A DNA stretch of 64,000 nt from an uncultured Armatimonadetes bacterium (GTDB taxonomy: Bacteria; Armatimonadota; UBA5829; DTJY01), in assembly GCA_963717145.1 (NCBI GenBank), contig OY970325.1:4480001-4544000 (forward strand), given 5' to 3'. Below are positions 19,060-36,404 of the stretch, one piece after another. The position numbers and the translations under genes were made by a program. The first letter of the stretch is position 1. Every line of letters begins with the position of its first letter. Below the pieces are notes generated by a model, which was given only the letters and a program-made list of their open reading frames with translations, did no database searches and was not told where the DNA came from.

Positions 19060-21927
19060 CTAGTTGCGCCGCTTGCGCTTGGCATCGAGGAGGCGTGAGG
19101 AGAGGGTGCCGCCCTCGGATGCAGGCTTGGGCTCGGATGGAGATGCCTGTGCCGGCGCCCGTTCGGGCCCAGGCGCGGATGTCTGTTGAGGCCGGGCGCC
19201 GGGCGGGACGGTATTCGTCGTGAACTCGACCTTCTCGACGGGCTTGCGCTCCCTCTTGGCGCGGAGGAGGTTCGACACCATCTCCGGCTCCTGAGTGACC
19301 GGTCTCGTCTTCCTTCGCAAACGGTGCGCGCGGATGAACTCCCTCAGCTTCGAGTACTCCTCCACGAACTGCTCCGGCGTGATCACCAGCCGCCGAACCG
19401 CCACGTCGAGTGGGAGAAGGATCGCCGCCAGGATCACGAGCAGCCGCCAGAGGTCCGTGTATGCCCTCGATCGGCGGAATGCCTGAGTGAACACCTCCGA
19501 GGCCTTGGAGTCATACCGCCCGCCGGTCTCGGACGCGATCCGCTTGAGGAGCGCCGTGTTCGGCGCGATGTCCTTGTACTCCGGCGGGTAGGGGATCGTG
19601 ATGACGCTGACATCCGGCGAAGTTTGGTCCTGATCGCGCCTCACCACGTTCACCACGTAGCTTCCGACCTCGCGCGCGTCGAAGGTCGCCTCGTAACGAC
19701 CCGGGCCGGTCTGATCGATTGAGAGCTGCTTGCCCTTCATGCTCGGGCCGACCACCGATCCCTTGAACTTGATCTGGTTGAGGAAGTTGCCCTTGTCGTC
19801 CACCGCGTCGATGGTCACATATCCCGTTCCGTTCTGTACGTCCACCATCGTCTGGAAGTCGGTCGGCGGATTCTTGCGCATAGTCGAGCGGACGACCTGT
19901 GCCCAGAACCTCCCGTAGTCCGGCCATTGGACCCAGTGAGACGACCACCGAGCCTTGCAGTCCGACGTGAACGCCGCCGACTTCCCGAGCCCATACTGCC
20001 ACGTCGCGAGGATCGGGTCCTTGTGCTTCGAGATCATCGAGATGCGCGCGGTTGGCTTCGGGCTCGTCGTCACGTATCCGAGCAGCGCCGGGACGGACGT
20101 GATGCCCGCCAGTTCGGGGCTCGACGGATCGATCGTCGGGATGAACGGCTCCTCCACGATCAGCGACTTCGAGACCGTCATGACATCCTTGGTGAAGATC
20201 GCCTTCAAGTCGGACGCCTGCAGCGTGAGGTAGAAGTTGCCCCGACCGGCCGCCGCCACGTTCTTGAGGAACGGCACGTGTGGGCCGTCGCCGATCGCAA
20301 CCGCCGTCACCGTGATCTTCTCGCCCGCCATCTGCTTGGCGAGCGGCACGACGCCGTCCTGGTCATCGCAGTCGCCACCATCCGCGAGCAGGATGATATG
20401 CCTCTGCCGGGTCCTGCTCTTCTTCATCATCTCATAGGCCATCTGCATCGAGGGGAACACGGCGATCCCGCCGCCTTCCGCGCGGATGGTGGAGATCTGG
20501 TCGTAGATCGGGCCCTTGCTGTTCGCCTGCTGAAGCTCGACCGCCGCTACCGGGCTCGTGTGGCAGACTATTACCCCGACGTAATCGATCGGCTGGAGCA
20601 GCTTCACGACCGCAGACGCGCCATCGTTCGCCAGCTGGATCTTCGTCGTGCCGCCCTCCGGTGCGCTCATCGAGCCGGACTTGTCCATCACCACGATCAC
20701 CGAGAGCGAGGGCAGCACCTTCGTCTTGCGGACCGACATATCGACCGGGAGCGCCTTCTCGATCGGCGTGTCGAAGTAGCCGCCCGCGCCGAAGCCGTCC
20801 TCGCCGCCGACCATCGTGAACCCGATTCCCAGGTCCTTGACGCCCGATTCGATCAGCAGCATCTGCTCGGCAGACATTCCGATCGCCGGAACATCCGAGA
20901 GCACGAGCATGTCGTAGCCTCTCAACTGCGCGAGCGAGGTCGGAATCCCCGAGCGGTCGCGCGCCTCGACCTCGATGTCGGTGGTCTTGAGCGCCTCGGC
21001 GAGGTATTTCGCCTGGCCGGGGACTCCCTCCACGTACAGCACCTTCGGCTTGCCGTTGACCATCGTGTAGGCGAGCGCGGTGTTGTTCTCCATGCGAGTG
21101 TCCTGGTCGCACTCCAGGATCGCCTCGTACTCGTAGCTTCCGGGCTTGTCGATCGACTGCTGGAACGTGAGGACGCTCTTGCCCTTCGTAAGCTGCACGG
21201 ACTTGACCCCGACTGGCACGCCGTTTCTGAGGACACGGATCTGCGCCGAGACCGGCTCCTTGGCGATCGCAACCACCTTGAGATCGAACGGCTCGCCGAC
21301 TTTCACCGCGCTCGGGCAGACCATCTTGTCGAGCAGGACCTCGTGCGGAAGCTCGTTCGTGAGCGGCACGACATCGACCGAGACGTCGTTCGAGCCGATG
21401 AGCATCGCCTGCTCGATCGCCTTTCCGCGCGTCTCGTTCCCATCGGAGAGGAGCACGATCTTCTTCGCGGTCTTCTCCGGGAATAGGGCGAGTGCGAGGC
21501 CTAGTGCCTGCGAGATGTCGGTATTCCCGGTGTCGGGGATCGAGTAGATCCTGTCGATCTTCGGGACGTTCGACGGCGAGATCTCCACGGAGGCATCCGC
21601 TCCATATGCTATGATGCCGACGAGGTTCTCGGTCTTGAGCTGCTTCAGGGCGGTGTTGATATACGCCAGTGCCGTCTGCTGTCGAGTCTTCGGGATGCTG
21701 TCCGAGATGTCGATCACGAAGACGACGCACCGTTGGGAGACGTTCTGGACCGTGCGCGCGCCTGCGAGGGCGAACACAAGCATGACGAGGATGAGCGACC
21801 GCAGGACGAGCGCGAACTTCGACCGGAACCTCGACATATCGGCGAGGCTGTGGGCCGCCATCCGGTACGTATAGTACCCCAGCGGTATCAGAATCAGTAG
21901 CCACAACGGCTTGGTGAACTGGATCAT
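19060..21927 (-). CDS. Double vWA + GATase1-like domain membrane protein
   Basis: DISDS and DKSGSM MIDAS motifs, LLSDGNET, SDVPA..GG..GFGAGGY, WQYGLGKSAAFTSD. Confidence 0.88.
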   Translation of the reverse strand: MIQFTKPLWLLILIPLGYYTYRMAAHSLADMSRFRSKFALVLRSLILVMLVFALAGARTVQNVSQRCVVFVIDISDSIPKTRQQTALAYINTALKQLKTENLVGIIAYGADASVEISPSNVPKIDRIYSIPDTGNTDISQALGLALALFPEKTAKKIVLLSDGNETRGKAIEQAMLIGSNDVSVDVVPLTNELPHEVLLDKMVCPSAVKVGEPFDLKVVAIAKEPVSAQIRVLRNGVPVGVKSVQLTKGKSVLTFQQSIDKPGSYEYEAILECDQDTRMENNTALAYTMVNGKPKVLYVEGVPGQAKYLAEALKTTDIEVEARDRSGIPTSLAQLRGYDMLVLSDVPAIGMSAEQMLLIESGVKDLGIGFTMVGGEDGFGAGGYFDTPIEKALPVDMSVRKTKVLPSLSVIVVMDKSGSMSAPEGGTTKIQLANDGASAVVKLLQPIDYVGVIVCHTSPVAAVELQQANSKGPIYDQISTIRAEGGGIAVFPSMQMAYEMMKKSRTRQRHIILLADGGDCDDQDGVVPLAKQMAGEKITVTAVAIGDGPHVPFLKNVAAAGRGNFYLTLQASDLKAIFTKDVMTVSKSLIVEEPFIPTIDPSSPELAGITSVPALLGYVTTSPKPTARISMISKHKDPILATWQYGLGKSAAFTSDCKARWSSHWVQWPDYGRFWAQVVRSTMRKNPPTDFQTMVDVQNGTGYVTIDAVDDKGNFLNQIKFKGSVVGPSMKGKQLSIDQTGPGRYEATFDAREVGSYVVNVVRRDQDQTSPDVSVITIPYPPEYKDIAPNTALLKRIASETGGRYDSKASEVFTQAFRRSRAYTDLWRLLVILAAILLPLDVAVRRLVITPEQFVEEYSKLREFIRAHRLRRKTRPVTQEPEMVSNLLRAKRERKPVEKVEFTTNTVPPGARPQQTSAPGPERAPAQASPSEPKPASEGGTLSSRLLDAKRKRRN

Positions 21928-21937
21928 GTTTCTCTGC

Positions 21938-22027
21938 CTGATGTAGGAGCAGCTTCCTAGCTGCGATGGGGTTCCCTTTCTAGCTATGAAGGCCCCCATC
22001 GCAGCTAGGAAGCTGCTCCTACATCAG
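21938..22027. repeat. GTAG-type REP doublet
   Basis: gtaggagcagcttcctagctgcgatgggg...ccccatcgcagctaggaagctgctcctac. Confidence 0.9.
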
Positions 22028-23866
22028 ATACGCCGGTGGTACGCATACCACTCGAATGCCAGGACTCCGAGCGCGAGGAGCACGAGCGGCTGGAAGAACT
22101 CCCGGTTCGTTTGCACCGGCTTCCCGGTGGACGCGAACTTCTTGCCGCCGACCGAGAACGCCTCCCTGGGCGCGGTCGATGACTCCTGCATCGAGGTCAG
22201 GTTGCACGCGAACTCCCGCCTGACGCCTTTGCCGGTCACGCGGTAGACGCCCGCGCGCTCCGTGTTGTCGAAAATCACAGGCGTTTGCGTCACCTTGATC
22301 GCCTGCTTGTGGCCGAGTGGATCGGTCACGTCGATCTGCGCCAGGCCCGCGGGCACGTCGATGTACATCGGCTGGCCCGTTCGAATGCTCTCGCCCGCGC
22401 TCAATGTCTGCGCCGGGACGAGCCAATCAAGGCAGTTCGTGATGAATATCGGGAAGCCGACTCGGAGCGGGAAATCGCTGTCGAGCAGGCTGAACGAAAG
22501 CTGCACGAAGTTCCGGCCGCCCCTCGATCCGGCAACGGCGAGCACTCCGCCTGCGCTCTCCACGAGTGCCGTCGCCCAGTTCGCAGGCGAGAGACGGCGT
22601 GCCTCCGCGACCTGCACGTTCCCGAAGTCGACGTATCGGCTCACGGGATGATTCCGCGCGTAATCGACGATCGACGGGCGCTGGATCATCTCACCGATCC
22701 CAGCGGGTCCCTGGGGCGCGGATGAGTTGATCAGCAGGTATCCTCCCTGCGGGACGTTCGCCGGCGGGGTAACTCCATCGAAGACCACCAGGTCGTACTT
22801 CGAATCCTTGAAGCTCGCGGGAATCGCCTCCGCCTTCGTGACCGATGTCCGGGGATCGAGGTTGAGCGCATTCTGGAGGAAGATGTTGCCCTTCGAGACC
22901 ATCAGCACCGAGATCTTGCGCGGCTTCGTTAGGTAGACCGAGCCGCTGTTGTCCACGGCCAGGTCGTCCTTCACATCGAGCTTGGCGGTCACCCGGCCGT
23001 CGAGGTTTCCGACGTTGTTGAGCAACTCCTGCCTCGACTCGCCCGCCTTGAGCGTCTCCTCGCGCACGTCGAGAAGCTCGTCGTTGAGGTAGACCTCGAG
23101 GTTGAACGCCTGATCGCGCTTCGAGTAGTTGCGGAATCCGATGAAGACCTGCTGTTCGCCGGAGAGCGTCTTGCGTGACGACAGGCCCGTGATCGCCACG
23201 TTATCGCATTCCCGCCCGATGCGCATGTAATCGAGCCGCGCGTTCTCGGCCGAGAGGTCGGAGAGCGCCTCGAACCCGCCGTCCGAGAGCACGACGATCC
23301 GCGGGGGAGTGCGCGACTTCCCCGCGACGAGTGAGAGCGCGAGGACCAGAGCCTGGCGCATGTTGCACGGGGTATCGACCGGCCCGAGTCGCCTGATCGC
23401 CTCATTGAGCGACTTCTTGTCCGAGGTGAACGATGCGACGACTCGCGCCTTCGAGCCGGCGGTCATGACGAGCATCGTGTCGCCGCCGCCCATGCGTCCG
23501 ACGATCCCGAGCGCCTTCGACTTGGCGTCATCGAATCGAGAGGGCTTCACGTCGGTGGCCTGCATGCTGGCGGATGAGTCGAGGATGACGACGATCCGGT
23601 TGCCCTGACCGCTCTGACTCCTGATGTATGGGCGCGCTATCGCTCCAATGACAGCCAGGAGTGCGATGACCTGGAGCAGCAGCAGGAGGCTCTTCCTGAG
23701 CTTCTGAAACGGCGCATTCGCCTGGATGTCGGCGACCGCATCCTGCCAGAGCATGACGGACGAGAACCACCTGCTCTTTGCGTTTCAGCTTGAGCAGGTA
23801 TAAGAGCACGATGATCCCGCCGAGTGGCAGGATCAGCAGTAACGACCAGGGTGATAGTAAGCTCAT
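22024..23866 (-). CDS. BatA N-terminal + vWA domain protein; 1-nt frameshift near 23765
   Basis: LYLLKLKRKEQVV(S)SVMLW restored by removing one base; ILDSSASM MIDAS; C-terminal TM ending EWYAYHRRI. Confidence 0.88.
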
Positions 23867-24334: not shown

Positions 24335-25237
24335 TTACTTCAATGCTCCCCGCCGGCGCAGGTAGTTCAGTATCAGGTCCTCGAACGGCGACTGGTTCGT
24401 CACGCGGACGTAGTTGCACCCGTACCGCATCGCGAACCCCTCGATCTCCCCGAGGAACTCCCCGAGCCGCTGCTGATACCGTCGGAGGAGCGTCTGCGTG
24501 ATCGTGATCTCCCGCTTCTCGCCGGTCTCCGAGTCGACCATGAGCAGGTCGCCGACCGTCGTCGGGTTGACCTCCTCCTGGTCGAGCAGGTGCACCATCG
24601 TCACCTCGAACTTGCGCGAGAGGAGCGCCGTGAGCCCCTGCTGATACGTCGGATCGAGGAAGTCCGAGATCACGATCGCCAGCCCGGAGTTCGACGTCCG
24701 AAGGCTGAAGTCGCGGATCGAGCTTCCAAGCTGCGTCTTCCCCGAGGCCTGCACAGTCCGCAGGTAGTCGAAGATCGTGAACGCCGCCTGCTTACCCCGC
24801 TTCGGGCTGAGCATCGCCGCCAACTCCCCGCTGAGCGCCGCCAGACCGACGCGGTCGAGGTTGCTCAGCGCGATATACGACAGTGCAGCCGCGATGCGCT
24901 TGGCGTACAGCAGCTTCTTCGGATGGCCGAAATCCATCGACTTCGACGTGTCCACGAGTATATAGACGTGCAGGTCCTCTTCTTCGACGAACAACTTGAG
25001 GAAAAGCTTCTCGAGGCGCGCATAGACGTTCCAGTCGACGCGCCGGAGGTCGTCGCCTGTGGTGTAGTTTCGGTAGTCGGCGAACTCGACCGCCGAGCCG
25101 CGCTTGGTCGATCGCCGCTCACCCCGGAGCCGCCCGGGGAACACCCGCTTAGCGACGAGCGACAGCCGCTCGATTTTCCGCAGAAACTCGGGATCGAGCA
25201 GTTCCTCGCGTTCGTCTATCTGTTCTATTGTATCCAA
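24335..25237 (-). CDS. DUF58 domain protein (MoxR partner)
   Basis: GERRSTKRGSAVEFADYRNYTTGDDLRRVDWN, VDTSKSM, VISDFL. Confidence 0.93.
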   Translation of the reverse strand: MDTIEQIDEREELLDPEFLRKIERLSLVAKRVFPGRLRGERRSTKRGSAVEFADYRNYTTGDDLRRVDWNVYARLEKLFLKLFVEEEDLHVYILVDTSKSMDFGHPKKLLYAKRIAAALSYIALSNLDRVGLAALSGELAAMLSPKRGKQAAFTIFDYLRTVQASGKTQLGSSIRDFSLRTSNSGLAIVISDFLDPTYQQGLTALLSRKFEVTMVHLLDQEEVNPTTVGDLLMVDSETGEKREITITQTLLRRYQQRLGEFLGEIEGFAMRYGCNYVRVTNQSPFEDLILNYLRRRGALK

Positions 25238-25308: not shown

Positions 25309-25722
25309 CTAGTCGGCCTGAGCCCGCTGCCGGTGCCGATGTATCGACCGCCCGGCGAAGAAACCGATCAGCGCTGAGGCCGCGATGACGGAAAAGGCAA
25401 TCCCCGAGCTAGCCAGACGATGATGGACAGCGCCTTCACGCATCCCATCCATGACGGCAATGACGATCACGAAGACCAGGATCGAGACCGCCGACTGAAG
25501 CATGTGCATACGGGTCTGGCGTGTCCACCCCGGATCATCCCACTGCCACCCAAGGATGAAGGCTGAAACCGCGAAGAACAGCAGCCCGGCGCCGACCACA
25601 ATCTGCCCCGCGTACGCCGGCAGGAGAACAGCCGCAATCGTCGTTGGGACTGCAAATGCCAGCACATAGCCAAGCAGTTGCAGAATCATCACCGCGTCAC
25701 TGGGGGTCTGGTTGTCCTGCAT
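25309..25722 (-). CDS. Small 4-TM hypothetical membrane protein
   Basis: GGAGG RBS then ATG; four hydrophobic segments. Confidence 0.75.
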   Translation of the reverse strand: MQDNQTPSDAVMILQLLGYVLAFAVPTTIAAVLLPAYAGQIVVGAGLLFFAVSAFILGWQWDDPGWTRQTRMHMLQSAVSILVFVIVIAVMDGMREGAVHHRLASSGIAFSVIAASALIGFFAGRSIHRHRQRAQAD

Positions 25723-25739
25723 ATGCGTCCTCCATCGTC

Positions 25740-25770
25740 GAAAGCGGAGTCTGCGGAGCTTCCGCTCTGC
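25740..25770. repeat. Truncated GGAGTGCGGAAGC-family unit between the two small genes
   Basis: gaaagcggagtctgcggagcttccgctctg. Confidence 0.8.
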
Positions 25771-25779
25771 TTGGCGCGA

Positions 25780-26202
25780 TCAGCCGTTCAATCTCCCTGC
25801 GCTCCTACCAGTGCCGAGCTTGCGGCCGAGCATCAATGGAGCGACAACAAACATCAACCCGGCCGCGAAGAGCGCCGCGACAACCATTAGCGCATAGGTA
25901 GCTCTCCCCGATAGAGCAAACTGAACTGCGACTATCACAATTGGTGACAGATACATCGAGAGCAGCACGACCACCAGCCAAGGAGCAAGGCTCGGACCTG
26001 TCAGCGGATAGCTATTCCGGTAGTAACCGATGAGAAACGCCGTTACCGCGACGAACAGGATGCCAGTCCCGCCTGCAACCCACTCCTTGTATTCCGGCAA
26101 GAGTAAGAGCCCGGTTGTGCCTACGAGCACGAAGGCGAGTTCGTACACGATCACTTTTCGCGCGATTCGGTTCGTCTTCTGCCGTTCCTCAGATGGCTCC
26201 AC
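25780..26202 (-). CDS. Small 4-TM hypothetical membrane protein
   Basis: GAGGA RBS then GTG at 26202; four hydrophobic segments. Confidence 0.7.
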   Translation of the reverse strand: MEPSEERQKTNRIARKVIVYELAFVLVGTTGLLLLPEYKEWVAGGTGILFVAVTAFLIGYYRNSYPLTGPSLAPWLVVVLLSMYLSPIVIVAVQFALSGRATYALMVVAALFAAGLMFVVAPLMLGRKLGTGRSAGRLNG

Positions 26203-26258: not shown

Positions 26259-27257
<999 letters not shown>

Positions 27258-27270
27258 GATACCTCCCTGA

Positions 27271-27382
27271 ACATGCAGGAGGGATTTGCCGGGATGGTTT
27301 GTGCCCGGTAATCCCGAACGCGCAACGATCGGTGTTCGGGATTACCGGGCACAAACCATCCCGGCAAATCCCTCCTACATGT
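27271..27382. repeat. Long GTAGGAGGG..CCGGGATG palindrome
   Basis: About 48-bp inverted arms; family also at 46862-46954 and 63126-63231. Confidence 0.9.
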
Positions 27383-29173
27383 CTATTCCAAACTGCTGAA
27401 ATAATCCTTGACCCTGTTCCGGTACGCCGGGGGGACCTTCTCCTTCGAGAGGGCGCTCTCGGCCGACTTCTTGTAGTTCGAGTACACATCGGTATACGGC
27501 ACTGAGGCGGGCGATGAGAGGGTGGGAGCGCCCTTCGACTCACCGGCTGAGAACACCTGACCGCTCTCGCCGAGCATCGACGGCGAGTGGGAGATGTCCT
27601 TCACATCGTTGAGCTTGCCCTTCGGTCCGGTATTGGCATCGTCTCCGCCCCTGCCCGATCCGGGGCCGCCCTTGCCGCTCGGGCCTTGACTCTCGCCGTC
27701 CGTGCCCTTGCCGTCCTTACCCGTCATTCCGCCAAGGCCGGATGCGATCGATCCGCTTGAGCCGCTCTGACCGAGCGAACAACTTGCGCCGCTTCAAGTG
27801 CCGCCCGCATGTTTGAGCGCCTCCGCGAGCTGCTGCTGGCTCTGCATCTCCTTGGTCATCTTCGCCAGCTCTTCGGGACTCATCTTTGCCAATCTCTCGG
27901 CGTTCTCGCGCATCATCTTCGCAAGCTTGTTCAGGTCCGTGCCCTTCAGTGCCTTGGCGAGCGCATCGAGCTGCTTTTGGAGCGCCTCACGGTCGGCCTC
28001 TTTCATCTGACCGCCCTGCGCCTTCTGGGTGAGCTTCTGCATCAGCTCGGACGCCTTCTTGAAATCCTCGTTCTCCGCGAGCTTGGCAAGTGCCTCACCG
28101 AGTTCCTTCGGGATCGCGAGACTGCTGTTCGGGTTGGTGTACTTCTCGACCGCCTTCTCGAGTTCCTTGCGCTCGGACTCGGTCAGCGGCTCGGACTTCT
28201 GCGCGAGTTCGGCCATCCGCTTGTCGGACGCCAGCTTCCTGAGCGCCTCAGCCGGCGGAATATTCTGCTTCTCCGCCATCTTGCGGGCCATGTCCCTCGC
28301 GAGTTCCTCCGCCGCCTTCTTCATCTCGGCCTGCGCCTCAGCCATCGACTTAGTGGTCGAGTTCTCCTTCGCCAGGCGATCCTGCTCGGCCTTGATCTGC
28401 TTGTTCAGGCGCTGGGAGCTGATCATCGCTTCCTTCTTCGGCATGCGGCCGGTCTGCATCTTGCGCCCGAGGTCGTCGAGCTTGCCTGCGAGCTTCTTCA
28501 AGTCCTTCTGTCTGTCGCCGGCCCGCTTTTCGATCTCCTTGCTGATCTTGAGGAGTGTCGCTCCCTCCTGCTTCATCGTCGCGATATCCTGTTGACGCGC
28601 CGGCGAATTGAAGCGGGCCATCTGCGGGATGAAGGTGACCCCGAGCAGCAGGACGACGGCCGCGAGGAAGGCGACGTGCGGCGGGCCGAATCGATGGCGG
28701 AAGACCTCCGACGCCTTCAGCCCCGAGAAATGCTCGTTGGCATCCGTGACGAGCGCCTGTTCGAAGTCAGTAGGGAACGCCCGGGAACCGACCCTCACCC
28801 CCGACCCCTCTCCCTCAGAAGGGCGAGGGGAGACCGCCCCCCCTCGCCCTTCTGAGGGAGAGGGGTCGGCGAAGGCGATGGCGGTCGAGAGCCGCTCCTT
28901 GAGGCCGGTGCGCTTGTCGGCGGCGATGGCGACGGTGAGGTCCCTGAGCGGGCGAGTCAATGCGAAGGCGCACCCGCCGAGTATGCCCGCGATCACCGTC
29001 GAGAACCAAATGCGGTAGTCGAGCAGCGAGGTCACCTGTGTTGACAGGATCACCATGCACGTGGCCAGGACCGCTCCCACTCCGCCGCCGAAGAGCCCGT
29101 ATCGCTCGATCAGCAGGAGCCGGACCCGCCGTCGCAACCGCCATATCTGACTATCGAGACCTTTACTGTCCAC
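27383..29173 (-). CDS. Membrane-anchored coiled-coil protein of the MoxR operon with an in-frame TGA (27796-27794); candidate selenoprotein
   Basis: ORFs 27794-29173 and 27383-27727 share one frame separated only by TGA; N-terminal TMs, LKERLSTA, long coiled coil, Gly-rich linker, C-terminal VPPAYRNRVKDYF. Confidence 0.75.
27761..27793 (-). promoter_or_regulatory. Candidate bacterial SECIS hairpin
   Basis: After UGA: AGCGGCGCAAGUUGUU-CGCUC-GGUCA-GAGCG-GC; apical loop begins with GG 21 nt after UGA. Confidence 0.6.
28791..28869. repeat. CCCTCTCCC..GGGAGAGGG palindrome in frame
   Basis: Translated DPSPSEGRGGAVSPRPSEGEGSGVRV; related element at 53810-53913. Confidence 0.88.
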
Positions 29174-29195
29174 TGCTCACCGTTACCTTGCCCGT

Positions 29196-29282
29196 GACAC
29201 CGTAGGGGCGATCCTTCTACGGTCGCCCGTGGAATCGCAGAGAGTGCACGGGCGACCGTAGAAGGATCGCCCCTACGGTGTC
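29196..29282. repeat. GTAG-type REP doublet
   Basis: gacaccgtaggggcgatccttctacggtcgcccgtg...cacgggcgaccgtagaaggatcgcccctacggtgtc. Confidence 0.9.
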
Positions 29283-29289
29283 CGCAGCC

Positions 29290-30924
29290 TCAGTATTGCT
29301 CTTCCTGCACCCCGCCGCCTGACTTCCGCGCAACCCAGGGGGCGGCGGCAAGAAGCCCGAGCGTCAGGGCGGCATAAAACCCGCTGACCAGCATCCACGA
29401 CAGATCCTTGGGCCACCAGAGTTTCGGCATGGTCGGGGACCACCCCTGAGCCTCCACGATGAGCGGCGTCACCGGCCAGAACGCGGCCAGTTGCCAGATC
29501 ACTCCCGATGCCCTGGAGAGCCCGAAGTTGTAGTTGGCCAGTATTATCGCATAGCCCGCGAACATCATGATGATCGCGACGACCGCGACTACCACCGCGT
29601 TTCGTCTCAGCTTGACGACTGCCGATGCGAATATGGATATCGCGGCCATTGCGGCTGCTACAGTCACGCATACTGCCCCGATCTTGTAGACGCTGAGCCA
29701 GTTCGCATGGGTCATGTGCGTATGCGTAGACCCGACCGACCAGCGGAGCGTGAGGCCGAATACCACATACTCCAGTATTGCCCACATCAGGACGAAGCAG
29801 AACGCTCCCGACATCTCGCTCTTGAACATCTTGCGGGGATCCAACAGGCCCATTATGCTCGGCTTTCCCCCCTGCGCCGGCATGCGACCGGTCGCGAAGA
29901 TCGGCGCGACATGCACGAACATGATGAACATGCTCGCGGCGGACATGGTGACCAGCGCCTGTATGCCCATGGAACCCATCGCGCCCCTGTAGGTCGCGTC
30001 GCCGAATGTGATCCACGTGGTGAAAAGCGACGATGCGATCAGCAGTATCCTCGCCGGGAGGGCCTTCTCCGCCCTCAGGTACTTCACGTGCATCGCGGCG
30101 ACGAACAGCAGAGCCGCGCCATAGAGGGAATGCTGGATCAGCGGAGGCAGGTAGATCGGAATCTTGAGACCGCAGACTGTCGCCTTCATCAATGGTCCCC
30201 ACGGCGCCCAGCCCGGGTTCATCAACGCCATTGCATTGACGGCCCCTCCTCCGTACCACATGCTCTGCAGCAGGGCCGCGCCCGATCCCAGCGTCGAGAG
30301 CAGATAACCCAGGGACGTGCCGTAGGTCAGCAGTACCGCGGCGGCCGTGCGGTTGAACAGCGACGACCAGAAGACACCCATCGCAGCGAGTACGAAGGTC
30401 CATGCGATCAGCAGCAGGTAGGTGACGAAAACCTCAGCGGGCGATATTCCGCCGAACATCAGGCAGATGCCGGAGAGCGGCAGAGAGCACATCAGCAGGA
30501 TCAGCGAGTAGAGCATCGCGCTGAGAAGCTTCCCGAGAACCACATTCCCCGGCGACAACCTGGTCAGCACCAGCATCTCGATGGTCTTCTTCTCGAGTTC
30601 CAGGGTGAGCGCACCGGATGTGAGCGATGGGATAATCAATGCCAGCAGAACGGTCTGCGTCCAGTTGAGGCTCATGAACAGCTTCTGTCCGAGCCTGGCG
30701 TTCACGAGCGACTGAGCGCCGTATCCGGTCGCAGACATGATCCACATGGTGTAGTAGGAGATCAGCAGCACGACGCCGAGGAACAGCACGTAGCCTCCCA
30801 TGACCAGGAAGCCCTTCCGTCCCCGCATCCTCGTGCGAAGCTCCTTCGCGACCACGGGGTTGTCCCGAATCCCATTGGCCCATACATCCTTAAGCTGCAT
30901 ACTCACCGTTGCTGCAATGCTCAT
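29290..30924 (-). CDS. ABC-2 type transporter permease
   Basis: NPVVAKELRTRMR, PSLTSGALTLELEKKTIEMLVLT, LGKL; multiple TMs. Confidence 0.85.
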   Translation of the reverse strand: MSIAATVSMQLKDVWANGIRDNPVVAKELRTRMRGRKGFLVMGGYVLFLGVVLLISYYTMWIMSATGYGAQSLVNARLGQKLFMSLNWTQTVLLALIIPSLTSGALTLELEKKTIEMLVLTRLSPGNVVLGKLLSAMLYSLILLMCSLPLSGICLMFGGISPAEVFVTYLLLIAWTFVLAAMGVFWSSLFNRTAAAVLLTYGTSLGYLLSTLGSGAALLQSMWYGGGAVNAMALMNPGWAPWGPLMKATVCGLKIPIYLPPLIQHSLYGAALLFVAAMHVKYLRAEKALPARILLIASSLFTTWITFGDATYRGAMGSMGIQALVTMSAASMFIMFVHVAPIFATGRMPAQGGKPSIMGLLDPRKMFKSEMSGAFCFVLMWAILEYVVFGLTLRWSVGSTHTHMTHANWLSVYKIGAVCVTVAAAMAAISIFASAVVKLRRNAVVVAVVAIIMMFAGYAIILANYNFGLSRASGVIWQLAAFWPVTPLIVEAQGWSPTMPKLWWPKDLSWMLVSGFYAALTLGLLAAAPWVARKSGGGVQEEQY

Positions 30925-30937
30925 GCTTTTCTCCTGC

Positions 30938-31969
30938 CTATGATCTTCTCAAGCGGTCGAGTCTTCGGACGGACAACCACTGACATACATATGCGTATGA
31001 TATCGATATGCCGACTGATGATAGCGCAAACCGCAAGACCTCATTGGCGTCCTTATAGCTGTCCACGATCTCGGACGCAGCTCTAAGCGGGTTGGCTATC
31101 GTGAACGCCTCCGCATCGCCTGCCGAGACGCTGGTAACCGCTGACCATATCCGGCCGGTGCCGAGCAGTACCAGTATGACCGCCATGTACGACAGGCCGA
31201 GGGGTATCACCCAGTTGGCTCGTCTGCCGATAATACGACTCATCACCCAGGACGCGACTCCAAATACTACGAAGCTCACCGGCGCTGCCTGGTAGAACAC
31301 CAGATCAGTGAAGCCCAGAAGCGCGTTCGCAGAACCTCGCATCAGGTCGCCAAGGAATACCAACGCGGCAGGTACACCAACGATCAGAACCATGGTAGTC
31401 AGGTATGCCGCAAATATGCTCGTTCGCGAATCCTTGAACACACACGAGCACAGTACTCCGAGTGCTCCGTAGGTACACGCGGCCACCAGGAGCACCCCGT
31501 ACATCTCGGCAACCTGCAAAGGCGATATCCCGCCAAGCATGAACACGACTGCCAGGACCGGGAGCGATGCCGCGAGCAGCATCACTATCTCAGCAACTGC
31601 CGCCGCCAACTTCTGCACTACAATGGCCCACGTTGGCAACAACGTTATGGCCAGCAGATCGAATGTTCGTCTATCGCGCTCGGCTGAAACAGTCATGGCA
31701 CTGTATGCCGGCACGATAAGGCACACCATCGAGACCTGCAGGAGCGACATCCACATGAAGATGTCCTCACCGAGCCGGCTGAGGTCCCCTGGCGATGGCC
31801 CTCCGGGCCAGGTCGCGAACAACGCGATCACCAGTATCGACAGCACTCCAGCGTATACCCCCATCACGATGAATGGCCGGGCCTTCCGCTGCCGGATGCG
31901 CATCTCCAGCCTGAGCACCGGGAACTCGATCTCCCTTATTCGATTGGTAAGCAGCCTAAGCTTTGCCAT
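30938..31969 (-). CDS. ABC-2 type transporter permease (paralog)
   Basis: FPVLRLEMR, PAYSAMTVSAERDRRTFDLLAIT, VQKL. Confidence 0.82.
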   Translation of the reverse strand: MAKLRLLTNRIREIEFPVLRLEMRIRQRKARPFIVMGVYAGVLSILVIALFATWPGGPSPGDLSRLGEDIFMWMSLLQVSMVCLIVPAYSAMTVSAERDRRTFDLLAITLLPTWAIVVQKLAAAVAEIVMLLAASLPVLAVVFMLGGISPLQVAEMYGVLLVAACTYGALGVLCSCVFKDSRTSIFAAYLTTMVLIVGVPAALVFLGDLMRGSANALLGFTDLVFYQAAPVSFVVFGVASWVMSRIIGRRANWVIPLGLSYMAVILVLLGTGRIWSAVTSVSAGDAEAFTIANPLRAASEIVDSYKDANEVLRFALSSVGISISYAYVCQWLSVRRLDRLRRS

Positions 31970-31982
31970 CAGCAGCCAAATG

Positions 31983-32987
31983 CTACGCGCGCCGCAAGGC
32001 CTCGAACTTCCGCACCGACAGATGCGTGAGCAGCATGGTTCCCGCGATCGAGAAGCCCAAGGTAGTGGCTACCATCTCCCATGCATGCGGCTCTCCCGTC
32101 AGCAGGCCGATAATGGCCGACAGCGGATTGACTGCGAGAGGCGCGTGCCACGGGAACAGGCTTTGATTCGGCCCCATGCGAATCACCAGGAACGCCATGA
32201 GAATCAGGGCGACCGCTGTTCCGATGATATCCGACATCCGGATGCCCTGCAGAGTCCCTCGACCGGTCATCCTCCTCACGAGGTGCACGGACACGATAAT
32301 CAGTGCAGCCGCCATGCCCATGAAGACGACGAACTCAATGGGCATCCAGCCATCGAACCAGTCGCTATGCGCAGGACCGGTGATATCCCATGCTCTGATC
32401 CAAATCCCCGCCAGATACAGGCCCACGACGCTTGTATATGCCATGAGCGTCGCAGTGCGAGCATTCCGCAGAACGCACGACCAGAACATCCCGCCCGCGG
32501 CGACGAACAACGCGGTCGCCATGAGTATGACGTAAGTCGCCACGATATCGAGCAGTGACTGCCCTCCACGGATACCGATGACCACCATAGTCGGAACGGC
32601 CGCTGTCACAACAACCACCGCCTCGGTTACCGCCGCCATCAGCTTCTGCAGGATGATGCCGGAGGACGGCAGTAGCGTCAGTGCCAACAGGTCAAACGTG
32701 TGCCTCTCACGCTCCACTGCAATCATGCCGGCGCTGCGAGCGGGTATCAGCACGCAGACAATGATGAGCAGAATGATGGACAACGCGGTAAACGCGGCAC
32801 GATTCCCATCCGGATCTCTGATATCTGCGAAAGCCGAGATGAATATCCATGCAATGAGCACTCCAACTCCGATAGACGGCGTTGAGGTGAGCAGGCCTTT
32901 GAGCTTGCGCCTCATTCGGAACTCGTGCTTCACCACCGGAAACTCTGTCTGCCGTATTCGATTGACAAGCTGCGGTATGGACGGCAT
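31983..32987 (-). CDS. ABC-2 type transporter permease (paralog)
   Basis: FPVVKHEFR, PARSAGMIAVERERHTFDLLALT, LQKL. Confidence 0.82.
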   Translation of the reverse strand: MPSIPQLVNRIRQTEFPVVKHEFRMRRKLKGLLTSTPSIGVGVLIAWIFISAFADIRDPDGNRAAFTALSIILLIIVCVLIPARSAGMIAVERERHTFDLLALTLLPSSGIILQKLMAAVTEAVVVVTAAVPTMVVIGIRGGQSLLDIVATYVILMATALFVAAGGMFWSCVLRNARTATLMAYTSVVGLYLAGIWIRAWDITGPAHSDWFDGWMPIEFVVFMGMAAALIIVSVHLVRRMTGRGTLQGIRMSDIIGTAVALILMAFLVIRMGPNQSLFPWHAPLAVNPLSAIIGLLTGEPHAWEMVATTLGFSIAGTMLLTHLSVRKFEALRRA

Positions 32988-33054: not shown

Positions 33055-33984
33055 CTACGAAACCGCTCCGCGCGTGACTTTGAGGAACACGTCCTCCAGG
33101 TCGAGGTCCGCCTCGTCGAATGAGTGCACCTTGAACCCCTGGACCGTCAGCGCCTCGAGGACCGCGTACTGCTCGCCCGGTTCGCCGACGTAAGTCGCGA
33201 GGATGTACCCATCGTCCTCCAGCTTGGCGTCGGATATGACGCTCAGGCCCGCGAGGCAGCCGAGCGCCTCCTGCCGGCGGTCGACCACCTGTATCTTCAG
33301 GCAGATGCCCGATCGGCACTGCGCCATGATCTGATTGACGTCGCCGCTGACCACGAGCTTGCCCTGCTCGATGATCGCGATCTTGTTGCAGAAATCGGCC
33401 AGTTCGGGGAGGATGTGCGACGAGATCAGGATCGTCTTGCCCATCTTCCGAAGCTCCTTCAGCAGCTCCTTGATCTCGATGCGCGCGCGCGGATCGAGCC
33501 CCGACGCCGGCTCGTCGAGCAGGAGGAGCTTCGGGTCGTGCAGGAGCGTCTTGGCGAGGCATAGTCTCTGCTGCATGCCTCTGGAAAGCTCGGCGACGAA
33601 GTTCTCCTTCTTGATCGAGAGGTCCGTCAGTTCCAGCACCTCGTCTATCACGGTGTTGCGCCTGTTCACGGGAATGCGATAGGCCGCTGCGAAGAAATCG
33701 AGGTACTCCCAGACCAGCACGTCGTCGTACATGCCGAAGAAGTCCGGCATATAGCCGATCAGCGGGCGGATCTCCTCCGGATACTGGAAGACATCGATCC
33801 CGTTCACATACGCCGTGCCGAAAGTCGGCTTGAGGAGGGTCGCCACCATGCGGATTGTGGTCGTTTTGCCGGCGCCGTTCGGGCCGATGAACCCCATGAT
33901 GTCACCCGCATCGAGCTGCAGGTTCAAGTCGTTCACCGCCGTCAGTTTGTCGTACTGCTTCGTGAGATTCTCTGTTCTGAGCAC
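33055..33984 (-). CDS. ABC transporter ATP-binding protein
   Basis: GPNGAGKTT, LSRGMQQR, LLLDEPASGLDP, ISSH. Confidence 0.95.
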   Translation of the reverse strand: MLRTENLTKQYDKLTAVNDLNLQLDAGDIMGFIGPNGAGKTTTIRMVATLLKPTFGTAYVNGIDVFQYPEEIRPLIGYMPDFFGMYDDVLVWEYLDFFAAAYRIPVNRRNTVIDEVLELTDLSIKKENFVAELSRGMQQRLCLAKTLLHDPKLLLLDEPASGLDPRARIEIKELLKELRKMGKTILISSHILPELADFCNKIAIIEQGKLVVSGDVNQIMAQCRSGICLKIQVVDRRQEALGCLAGLSVISDAKLEDDGYILATYVGEPGEQYAVLEALTVQGFKVHSFDEADLDLEDVFLKVTRGAVS

Positions 33985-33996
33985 GCCGCTGCCTCC

Positions 33997-36404
33997 CTAT
34001 TTCTGCTTTCCCATCGCGCTGATACTGACGCTGGATATCAGTACTCGAGCGTCGAGTGATTCGATCTTGAGCTTGATCTGGTTGCCTGGTTGAAGATACT
34101 GCGCCGGGTTTGGCACATCGCCGACGCCCTTGACTGTCACCCAGTTTCCGGCCAAGTTTTGCAGAGAATAGTTCACTCGCATAGCCCCGGTATGCTCAAA
34201 CTTGAACTTGTTTGAAGAGGCAAGCGACAGGGAGACCAGATCAAGCCTCCCTGGTACCGGCAACTGGTAGAGGACCATGAAGGATCCTGAGGGTTGAAGA
34301 TCGACCACCATTGTGCCGGGATTGACGTTCATTTCGGGAATCGGCTGAGCGCTCTGGGACTTGACTATCGTCGAGCTGATCGAGTTCGGTGAGAAGACCA
34401 GAACACCGCCCGTCGAGACGTCGAGCCGGATCATGATGCATGTCTGCGATATCACGTTGCCGCGACGACCGGAAAGACCGTAAGGGGCGTTCCGTTTCGC
34501 GAAGCCCACGAGAGTCGGCGCGTTCGAAGCCGACGATACCGTTCCGGCGACTCCCTGCAGATTGCTCTTGATGTTCTTCGCGTAGTTCGAGTACGGGTTC
34601 GACCTGGTGGAAGACGAGTACGGTGAACTCTTTGCGTCTACTCGGACCGTTCGGCCTCTTGGCAGACTGCCCAGTTCCTGCTGCATACCGGCGAACCGGA
34701 TCGCGCAGTCAGTCAGATCGAGGTTGGTGTTGTTCGTGACAGTCCCTTGAACGGCATTGCCGACAAGCGTCAGATTGCAGGTGAAGTTGCCGCCCATGTC
34801 CACGCCGCTGACCGACTCGATCGTCTTGGCCGACCACATCGCCATGTCTATGCCCTCGATTGCGGTCTTCTCGCCCAGATAAGCCGTCGGCATCTGCTCT
34901 TTTTCCTCTTCAGGGATGCATTGCCCGATAGCGTAAGGATCATTGATATCTACGTCGTATGAACGACGAGCCGGTGAGAAGAGCGATGCCTCGCTGATCA
35001 ACCGCGCATACCTGGCGTTCGTGCTTCCCTCGATCACCGTCGCGACCCCCATCTCGATCTTCCCGCCCTTGATGGTGTATCCGATCACGTATGCGCCGAG
35101 AGTGAAGAGCAGCACGATCGCCGGAGTGCTCACCCACGCGAGTTCCATCCGTCGCCGCTTCTTGAGGTACCAGTAGTTCACCGGCACTAGGAAGACCACG
35201 TAGGCGAGCAGGTAGAGGGCGATGATATTGAACGAAGGCGTCTTGATCGCCGGGTTCTGGTCGACGACATCCTGGAGGCTCATGGCTGATATCGAGGAGG
35301 TATAACCGCCTCGACTTCGAGGGCCGAGATTGTTTATCCATTCGAGGTTCTCGTCTACGGTTGCGCCCGGGACTGAGGTCATCAGTATGTTCTTCCAGAA
35401 TCCGACCTGCCCGTTCCAGTCCCTGAAAGGTGATGCCTTGTAGTCGAATGCCAGGAACACAACGCGTCCTGCGCCGTATCTGCGCTCGGCGTAGATCGGT
35501 ACCGCGCCCTCCCGGAGAACCTGACTGGAGATGCCCGGCTTCGGGACGCTGGTGGTGACGGCGACCGGTCCTGCGGGGAACCCGTCCTGCCGATCGAAGC
35601 GATTGCGTTCATGGCCGGCACGCTCGCCGATCCGGTGACGGTCACGGGGAGGAGATCGTTGAAGAACTCAGTCTGAAAGCTGCGGAAGTTCGGGCCGGTC
35701 GAGACGACGAGTGTGCCGCCGCCTGCCACCCACATGCTGATCGCCTTCAGGGCCTTCGGGTCCGGCGAGATGCCCCCGAAGTCAGAGACGATCATCACAT
35801 CCACGCCCTGGTAGGCCGCCGGTCGGTCGAAAAGCGTCGACGGCGAGAGCGCCGCTGCCTGAATCGTCGAATCGGTCGGTCCTGAGGACGGGGAATAGCC
35901 GGGCCCCGCCAGCATCGCCATTCTCCTGTTCATCACGAACGGAATCTTCTCTCCGGTCATGAACGACAGCTTGGACGACCTGTCGCCGAGACTCACGATC
36001 ATTCGGTCGCGGGTGCTTATGGCAACGAGATTCATCTCCCGGCTGGCGATGATCCGACTGCCGCGTACCAGTGCGACCTTCATGTTGCCGCCATACTCGG
36101 GCCTTCTGGTATACACGTAATACAGCTTCGTCGAGTTGCCCGGGAGGCTCACCTTTGCGGAACACACCGGCATCGCGCGTCGGTTCGTTGTGTCCTGCCG
36201 AACCTCGAGCACCCCTTCGACCGTCTTACCGCCGGGGTTCACGAGCTTGACGGCGATCGGCGACCACACCGCGGCTTTGACCGCGCCGTCGAAGCCGGCC
36301 AACACCTCGATGTCCACGGCATGGGCCGCGGTCGAGACAGTCGCAAGCAGGGCGAGGGTCATGGCGGCAAGCAGTAGCAGTCCGGTGGGACGATGATTCG
36401 TCAT
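33997..36404 (-). CDS. Large exported/membrane protein with GATase-like domain; 1-nt frameshift near 35581
   Basis: Signal peptide; WVAGGGTLVV; adding one G restores GFPAGPV...YGAGRVVFLAFD; YVVFLVPVNYWYLKKRRRMELAW TM motif. Confidence 0.78.

Follow-up and report, generated by a model that had tools for sequence, protein, structure and literature searches.

An in-frame UGA probably read as selenocysteine in a membrane-anchored stalk protein of Armatimonadota

The window analysed here, a stretch of 64,000 nucleotides from an uncultured Armatimonadetes bacterium (contig OY970325.1 of assembly GCA_963717145.1), carries on its minus strand a gene for a membrane-anchored helical stalk protein whose reading frame is crossed by a single TGA. 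The gene lies in a row that also encodes an ABC-2 exporter, MoxR, DUF58 and von Willebrand factor A (vWA) proteins. Comparison with other genomes leads us to propose, with a probability of roughly 0.85, that 29173-27383 is one genuine selenoprotein gene in which UGA 460 is decoded as selenocysteine (Sec, U). Its central features, including a hairpin that resembles a selenocysteine insertion sequence (SECIS), are the following.

27383..29173, minus strand: candidate full-length selenoprotein gene, 596 codons plus TAG, in one frame and with orthologues colinear over the whole length
27794..27796, minus strand: UGA codon 460 in K-H-A-G-G-T-U, probably read as selenocysteine (conserved column, Cys in relatives, Sec machinery)
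27762..27778, minus strand: SECIS-like hairpin, with 5' arm UCGCUC (27778-27773), loop GGUCA (27772-27768) and 3' arm GAGCGG (27767-27762)

The open reading frame (ORF) opens at GTG 29173 and runs for 459 codons to the TGA at 27796-27794, and the annotated product of the gene likewise ends at 459 residues. Past the TGA, the frame stays open for another 136 codons, up to TAG 27385-27383. The read-through product thus has 596 residues, with ...ALKHAGGT-U-SGASCSLGQSGSS... around the site and ...VPPAYRNRVKDYFSSLE at the C-terminal end. An earlier, sequence-only reading of the window had described two gene parts in one frame, parted by this single TGA, and had given the read-through peptide as ...KHAGGT-U-SGASC-SLGQSGSS...; both the frame and the peptide, together with the C-terminus proposed for it, agree exactly with ours. 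The hairpin whose GGUCA loop it had starting 21 nucleotides (nt) downstream of the UGA lies at 27778-27762, where a 6-bp stem begins 15 nt after the TGA and 21 nt separate the UGA from the loop.

The UGA column and its cysteine counterparts

Taken alone, a TGA-split frame followed by a hairpin is no more than chance would provide, and the case therefore rests on comparison with other genomes. Of 40 relatives, 13 have the gene (28-77% identity), and the aligned column holds TGA in 11 of them and a true Cys codon in the other two (L031 and L036). We then surveyed 401 genomes of the phylum (matches at E <= 1e-10; TGA and non-TGA forms tallied by hand). A homologue was matched in 146, and the match covers residue 460 in 105, of which 44 have an in-frame TGA in this column and 61 do not. 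All 44 TGA cases were confirmed in fetched DNA, with the TGA following a K/Q-A-G-G-T/G motif, and they span many genera and families, at identities down to ~27%. The Sec form would accordingly be widespread in a poorly studied phylum (44/401 genomes). For many distant members, the site came out wrongly placed in a large protein alignment, and they were positioned by the motif instead. TGA is also the true stop codon of several orthologues, so this lineage does not read every TGA as sense. One orthologue, L059 (G393:C4, from a 60%-complete genome), matches in three frames and has several extra in-frame TGAs in the longest of them; it seems to be frameshifted or misassembled, with the Sec site and hairpin intact, and was excluded from the alignments.

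What replaces selenocysteine is, for the most part, cysteine. Full-length database relatives and non-TGA loci show K-A-C-x-x-C at the site, and individual Cys forms can be set beside Sec forms of the same build, such as K-A-G-Q-T-C-x-x-C beside K-A-G-G-T-U-x-x-C, or K-A-C-R-S-C-x5-C beside K-A-G-G-T-U-x5-C. Cys is present in the region in 21 of the 26 non-TGA loci examined, and some Cys forms are very rich in it, with up to ~12 Cys in repeated CxxC or Cx4-5C (e.g., L065-L070, L104, and L106). The sequence-only reading had anticipated homologues that are single genes with TGA or Cys at the site; they are indeed single genes, and their site holds TGA or, mostly, Cys.

The partner of the selenocysteine varies. 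A Cys at +5 occurs only here and in L057, and relatives have Cys at +3, +6 or +10, Cys at -3 or a second Sec at +15; L062, L072, and L086 read UxxC. The two-Sec form was found in five genomes from two families (L091-L095, in G205, G213, G221, G141, and G087), where two in-frame TGAs stand 15 codons apart and the protein would read GGT-U-xGSGRGHRPHFGFG-U. Each of these UGAs has a hairpin of its own, GGGCGG-GGUCA-CCGCCC after the first and GCCGGC-GUU/GUC/GGU-GCCGGC after the second.

In databases, the family appears to be systematically mis-annotated as a truncated hypothetical protein. All named database relatives carry the label 'hypothetical protein', and 65 of 78 database relatives stop near the site, at 338-459 residues, or ~67-71% of the query region. 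A profile search of 1.84 billion cluster representatives returned 473 proteins at E <= 1e-30. Among the best 150 of these, the C-terminal tail is present in 110 (CxxC in 29, other Cys in 49 and no Cys in the region in 32) and missing in 40. The last residues are ...G-x-T/G in 37 of the tail-less representatives, including 15 with GGT and a few with G-C-G-T; judging the stop codon from these protein ends, they probably terminate at the site codon itself, and the G-C-G-T ends would then be CxxU forms. If the annotation were corrected, many genome records would regain the protein's best conserved part. The named relatives belong to Armatimonadota, including Fimbriimonadaceae, save one metagenome-assembled genome, on whose label two sources differ (Chlorobia or Fimbriimonadaceae-like), and a distant match in Pirellulales. 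ESM Atlas neighbours of a Cys homologue hint at Chloroflexota and Planctomycetota as well.

Selenocysteine machinery and the hairpin after the UGA

The genome, a single 5.37-Mb contig, has a tRNA-Sec (70.6 bits; SeC with anticodon tca according to ARAGORN) along with selA (567 bits), selB (383 bits) and selD (392 bits), that is, all four components that the sequence-only reading had named beforehand as ones to look for. Across the phylum, selA was detected in 218 of 401 genomes; it is present in 43/44 TGA genomes vs 23/61 with a non-TGA form, a pattern rather than a statistical test. The sole TGA genome without a detected selA (G213, 86% complete) has selB at 410 bits and tRNA-Sec at 80 bits, and Sec machinery is thus present in 44/44. 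selA went undetected in 39 genomes that have a homologue; 38 of these carry non-TGA forms, mostly Cys (CxxC), and the 39th is G213. As a side observation, selD of this genome (G000:C1:4140327-4141253, outside the window) is itself a selenoprotein gene, with an in-frame TGA in TTGGG-U-GCK, which includes the classical GGG-U-GCK context, and hairpins after the UGA.

Bacterial SECIS elements are stem-loops 3' of the UGA with a G in the apical loop, which lies 16-37 nt after the UGA. The hairpin at 27778-27762 agrees in both loop distance and G in the apical loop, and similar structures recur in the relatives. A position-specific test (stem of at least 5 bp, loop of 3-7 nt, loop start 17-27 nt after the codon) found a hairpin at 48 of 49 Sec codons, vs 11.9 expected from the other codons of the same ORFs; for stems of at least 6 bp, the figures were 42 of 49 vs 5.4. 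The sequence of the stem varies by clade at a similar distance from the Sec codon:

Own class: 5' arm CGCACU, loop GGGUC, 3' arm AGUGCG
One genus: 5' arm GCGCGC, loop UGGAU, 3' arm GCGCGC
L062 and L072: 5' arm GUCUUCGC, loop UGGAU, 3' arm GCGAAGAC
L085: 5' arm GGUCAGCA, loop GUC, 3' arm UGCUGACC
L087: 5' arm GCCCAGCA, loop GGC, 3' arm UGCUGGGU
L064: 5' arm GGCCGCCG, loop GUUU, 3' arm CGGCGGUC

Because hairpins from different clades did not line up when all 44 Sec sites were aligned together with MAFFT, pairs were counted per register group. In an ungapped alignment of 17 sequences in one register, with three or four stem types, both sides change in 5 of 7 pairs. Compensatory cells number 22, compared with 8.3 +/- 1.8 in shuffles (reached by 0 of 500), and 88% of cells are paired vs 11-66% with the partner column slid. 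Two further comparisons bear on what is being conserved. The Cys form L097 encodes A-C-A-L-D-A-R-Q-W like its Sec relatives, with 6 synonymous differences in 7 codons, and these differences abolish the GCGCGC-UGGAU-GCGCGC hairpin. In L030 and the window, a change from Cys to Ser (UGC -> AGC) is matched by a synonymous GCA -> GCU change in the pairing partner. At the level of sequence, these changes separate constraint on the RNA from constraint on the protein. The conserved TGA/Cys column, the hairpins and the Sec machinery thus support the claim of the sequence-only reading for a selenoprotein gene that carries a SECIS-type hairpin.

Several observations weigh against this conclusion. The G+C-rich window contains 47 same-frame pairs of open stretches split by a TGA (at least 100 and at least 60 codons), and a hairpin of at least 5 bp follows 23% of the other codons of the ORF at the same distance. 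The window's own hairpin consists of five G-C/A-U pairs plus a U-G and lies one nucleotide out of the register of its clade. The own-class stem is near-invariant, with 96.7% of cells paired and 1 compensatory pair, a number that 68 of 500 shuffles attain. Since this stem doubles as coding sequence for the conserved peptide A-L-G-Q-C, the own clade alone cannot part RNA from protein constraint. Sec and Cys forms could not be told apart by generic folding energy or z-scores downstream of the codon (p = 0.06 and 0.26), and these measures were for this reason replaced by the position-specific test. The genomes compared are related, and the counts are not independent. Finally, contigs from 4 soil-metagenome runs, representing 90-99% relatives, show no difference at 27794-27796 among the differences listed, with 47 others unlisted.

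How far do other explanations account for the same data? If the TGA were an ordinary stop, the product would be a 459-residue membrane protein, and the downstream frame would be untranslated or a small gene starting at ATG 27727, an in-frame ATG 23 codons beyond the TGA. Public annotation and the 65 database relatives ending near the site agree with such a stop, as does the frequency of open frames past TGA codons in this window. However, conservation in the family peaks beyond the TGA, in a stretch that never leaves the frame of the first part, the Met of ATG 27727 is not kept in homologues, the Cys-form relatives are single full-length proteins, and TGA forms are confined to genomes with Sec machinery and followed by hairpins, all of which makes an ordinary stop very improbable. 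Read-through without selenocysteine, by a near-cognate tRNA inserting Trp or Cys or through another recoding signal that uses the hairpin, appears hardly credible to us. Sequence data reveal that the codon is decoded, not by what, and a hairpin after a stop codon can also promote read-through; yet the strict tie to selA, selB, and tRNA-Sec (44/44, with 38 of the 39 genomes without selA being non-TGA), the presence of Cys, the usual counterpart of Sec, in non-TGA relatives, and a hairpin distance and G-containing loops that fit bacterial SECIS elements all argue for Sec. A sequencing error or a recent inactivating mutation that made a pseudogene has a negligible chance of being correct, for although the sequence-only reading mentions other broken genes in the window and this gene also bears an in-frame repeat insertion, the identical TGA column recurs in 44 genomes of many genera and families, and both gene halves are still conserved.

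Protein architecture and gene neighbourhood

An AlphaFold2 model built from a 40-sequence alignment is all-helical, with a predicted local distance difference test score (pLDDT) of 76 and a predicted template modelling score of 0.53. Together with hydropathy, it divides the protein as follows.

28955..29098, minus strand: two N-terminal membrane helices, residues 26-44 and 55-73 (hydropathy; AlphaFold2 helices 3-44 and 53-73, pLDDT > 90)
28769..28873, minus strand: in-frame palindromic repeat insertion PSPSEGRGGAVSPRPSEGEGSGVRVG, residues ~101-135 (low pLDDT)
28619..28675, minus strand: third membrane helix, residues 167-185 (AlphaFold2 and hydropathy)
27767..28603, minus strand: Lys/Glu-rich helical stalk, residues 191-469, with Sec in its last helix (AlphaFold2)
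27500..27766, minus strand: Gly-rich low-complexity linker, residues 470-558, predicted to be disordered (pLDDT < 50) and varying in length among homologues
27386..27499, minus strand: C-terminal tail of two helices (560-577 and 582-595), the most conserved part of the family

The model supports a position of the Sec at the distal end of a membrane-anchored helical stalk. This corresponds to the sequence-only reading, which had put it at the tip of a membrane-anchored coiled coil: the predicted stalk follows three membrane helices and carries the Sec in its last helix. An Arg-rich N-terminus precedes the first membrane helix. An N-terminus with positive charge followed by three membrane helices most likely puts the stalk, and with it the Sec, outside the cytoplasm, a placement derived from topology for which the charge around helix 3 is not decisive. 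The tail has the motif VPYxxVxxxYxxxAExAL..E.VPPxYRxxVKxYFxSL, in which E572, P581, V588, Y591, and F592 are invariant in 40 sequences.

Searches against known families gave little. Pfam has no family for the read-through protein (E <= 1) or for 39 relatives, and matches to NCBIfam release 20.0 were at chance level and below cut-off, with no selenoprotein model matched. In the stalk, the NCBIfam scan gave weak matches of coiled-coil type (SMC, TolA) below cut-offs and nothing more, and a Foldseek search of the model against the PDB returned no match at E <= 0.001.

The insertion PSPSEGRGGAVSPRPSEGEGSGVRVG is a near-palindrome in DNA, with ~20 copies elsewhere in the same genome on both strands. 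It corresponds to a gap in 10 of 12 homologues, and L025 has a different, non-matching insert of similar length. It is a mobile palindromic repeat that is tolerated within a coding region.

The sequence-only reading had assigned the gene to a MoxR/vWA/ABC row, and this is what surrounds it. All genes of the row are on the minus strand, in the order ABC ATPase, three ABC-2 permeases, stalk gene, MoxR, two small ORFs, DUF58 and two vWA genes:

33055-33984, minus strand: ABC ATPase, heading the three ABC-2 permeases
31983-32987 and 30938-31969, minus strand: first two of the three ABC-2 permeases
29290..30924, minus strand: ABC-2 type permease, last of the three and next gene upstream of the stalk gene (upstream in 17/29 loci with flanks)
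26259..27257, minus strand: MoxR-type AAA+ ATPase, next gene downstream (Pfam AAA_3, E = 3e-63)
25309-26199, minus strand: two small membrane ORFs of ~137-139 residues, each with 4-5 hydrophobic segments and no Pfam family
24335-25237, minus strand: DUF58, further downstream
22024-23754 and 19060-21999, minus strand: two membrane-anchored vWA proteins, after DUF58

MoxR lies directly downstream of the homologue in 24 of the 29 loci with flanks, and DUF58 follows MoxR in 13 of the 29, a count limited by flank length. In homologous loci of other classes, DUF58 comes directly after MoxR, unlike in the window, where the two small ORFs stand between them. Two long, perfect inverted repeats flank the stalk gene, one at 27322-27352, within the 125-nt gap before MoxR (~19-nt arms, gtgcccggtaatcccgaac ... 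gttcgggattaccgggcac), and one at ~29195-29290, just upstream of the start codon (~30-nt arms). They could be terminators, attenuators or elements like repetitive extragenic palindromes.

The row shows the MoxR-DUF58-vWA adjacency of Bat-like loci. Bat-type rows, including the Bacteroides aerotolerance operon, have been linked to oxygen tolerance and reducing agents. They share with the window the order MoxR, DUF58 and membrane-anchored vWA, but no family of the BatC, BatD or BatE type is assigned in the window. To our knowledge, the stalk protein and the upstream ABC-2 transporter are not part of the classical Bat set.

Relation to known systems and possible function

Two families of membrane proteins resemble the stalk protein in layout. 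Proteins of DUF4175 (PF13779) and TIGR02302 are long and membrane-bound, have helices at the N-terminus as well as stretches of low complexity, and are encoded near MoxR, DUF58, and vWA genes, which makes them similar in both architecture and neighbourhood. ESM Atlas rows for a Cys homologue consist of unnamed clusters and 'DUF4175 (Fragment)', with template modelling scores of 0.25-0.33 by query. Membership is not supported, as no hidden Markov model match was obtained for the protein (E <= 1), the 40 members or this gene in the genome search. TolA has a membrane anchor, a periplasm-spanning helical domain rich in Lys, Ala, and Glu, Gly-rich linkers, and a small C-terminal domain. The overall layout is alike, but the protein described here has three membrane helices instead of one, another C-terminal domain and no Tol-Pal neighbours, and TIGR02794 matches at chance level (E = 0.12, 11.6 bits vs a cut-off of 59), so membership is not supported for TolA either.

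The sequence-only reading had also likened the site to the GGTCxxxxC motif of class I pyridine nucleotide-disulfide oxidoreductases. The literal string G-G-T-U-x4-C is present in this genome, but relatives do not keep the Cys at +5, there is no domain binding flavin or nicotinamide adenine dinucleotide (no Pyr_redox match to the protein at E <= 1, nor in 40 members), and the model is all-helical. The likeness is superficial, a coincidence of one sequence, and membership in that class is not supported.

A 2026 review of prokaryotic selenoproteomes lists 119 families, nearly all of them enzymes or thioredoxin-like (PMC13188914). As had been proposed for it, the present family is not among the 119 in Table 1 of that review, whose accessible text mentions neither Armatimonad*, MoxR, 'transmembrane', 'membrane protein' nor 'coiled'. 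The new families in the accessible part of the deep-Sep paper are others (PMC12013277), and we found no report of an Armatimonadota or MoxR-linked selenoprotein in the literature, survey supplements being outside the scope of the search. As far as these portions of the sources extend, the family would appear to be a selenoprotein family absent from current lists. Like the bacterial UxxC/CxxU/GxxU selenoproteins of Table 1 in PMC13188914, it has a UGA with Cys homologues, a hairpin 3' of it with G in the loop, and a nearby Cys. Unlike them, it is a stalk protein without a thioredoxin-like or other known fold, and its Sec would lie in the helical stalk of a membrane protein, before a disordered linker. 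Prokaryotic selenoprotein families are few in number, and this one, with no known fold or domain, would comprise one- and two-Sec variants.

We envisage that SelB with Sec-tRNA(Sec) would recognise the hairpin 27778-27762 and that selenocysteine would be inserted at UGA 460, yielding a 596-residue protein. This product would have a three-helix membrane anchor and a ~280-residue helical stalk with Sec in K-A-G-G-T-U at its distal end, followed by a Gly-rich flexible linker and a small conserved two-helix tail. It would be co-encoded with the ABC-2 exporter upstream and with MoxR, DUF58, and two vWA proteins downstream. Tentatively, and with a fair chance of being wrong, we suggest that the selenol and a nearby Cys might form a redox-active selenylsulfide/thiol pair or a soft-metal ligand that senses or transfers redox state, most likely on the extracytoplasmic side, and could so modulate the neighbouring MoxR-vWA/ABC assembly. 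The variable partner and the CxxC counterparts fit either a redox-active pair or a soft-metal site. Some findings speak against such a function: the region of Sec460 is modelled with moderate confidence (pLDDT 56-68), the window's own protein has Ser at the +10 Cys of its clade, and Cys is missing from the region in 5 of the 26 non-TGA loci and in the 32 full-length representatives mentioned above. This loss of all Cys in ~30% of representatives makes the Sec/Cys site an accessory rather than the core of the family. Within MoxR-DUF58-vWA rows that are still unexplained, a selenol/thiol site nevertheless offers a concrete residue for mutation.

A possible, if rather unlikely, alternative is that a real Sec binds a soft metal (Cu, Zn, Hg, Ni or a site of Fe-S type) and is not a redox switch. 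The protein would then sense metal, or act as a metal chaperone, for the ABC-2 exporter or for the vWA proteins with their metal-ion-dependent adhesion site (MIDAS). The Cys-rich relatives with CxxC or Cx4-5C repeats point in this direction, and the table in PMC13188914 includes several metal-binding selenoproteins with CU or UxxU. Against a metal site, no metal-binding domain was detected in the Pfam and NCBIfam scans, and Cys varies in both number and spacing, with many members having a single U or C, or none.

A more specific version of the redox proposal, which we consider doubtful, is that the stalk spans the envelope in the manner of TolA and that the selenol/thiol at its distal end (U..C, CxxU, UxxC or U-x14-U) acts as a redox or oxidant sensor of the MoxR-DUF58-vWA and ABC-2 machine. 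If this were true, selenium availability and the redox state of the envelope would gate the assembly or activity of the machine. It would further give a first mechanistic handle on the effect of Bat-type MoxR-vWA operons on oxygen tolerance and exemplify a rare use of Sec by a signalling protein that is not an enzyme and is largely helical or disordered.

A purely structural role for a genuine Sec, in which selenylsulfide or diselenide bonds between subunits would hold together the extracytoplasmic ends of an oligomeric stalk, seems to us quite improbable. The site does lie at the end of a long helical stalk, two-Sec variants (U-x14-U) exist, and the predicted topology would give the region an extracytoplasmic location, in which Cys pairs tend to be oxidised. 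However, Sec is costly and seldom used for purely structural bonds, and the site is lost in ~30% of representatives.

At the head of the ABC row, two ORFs without a Pfam family (33997-35460 and 35382-36404, minus strand) overlap by ~80 nt and may be one of the 'broken genes' noted in the sequence-only reading.

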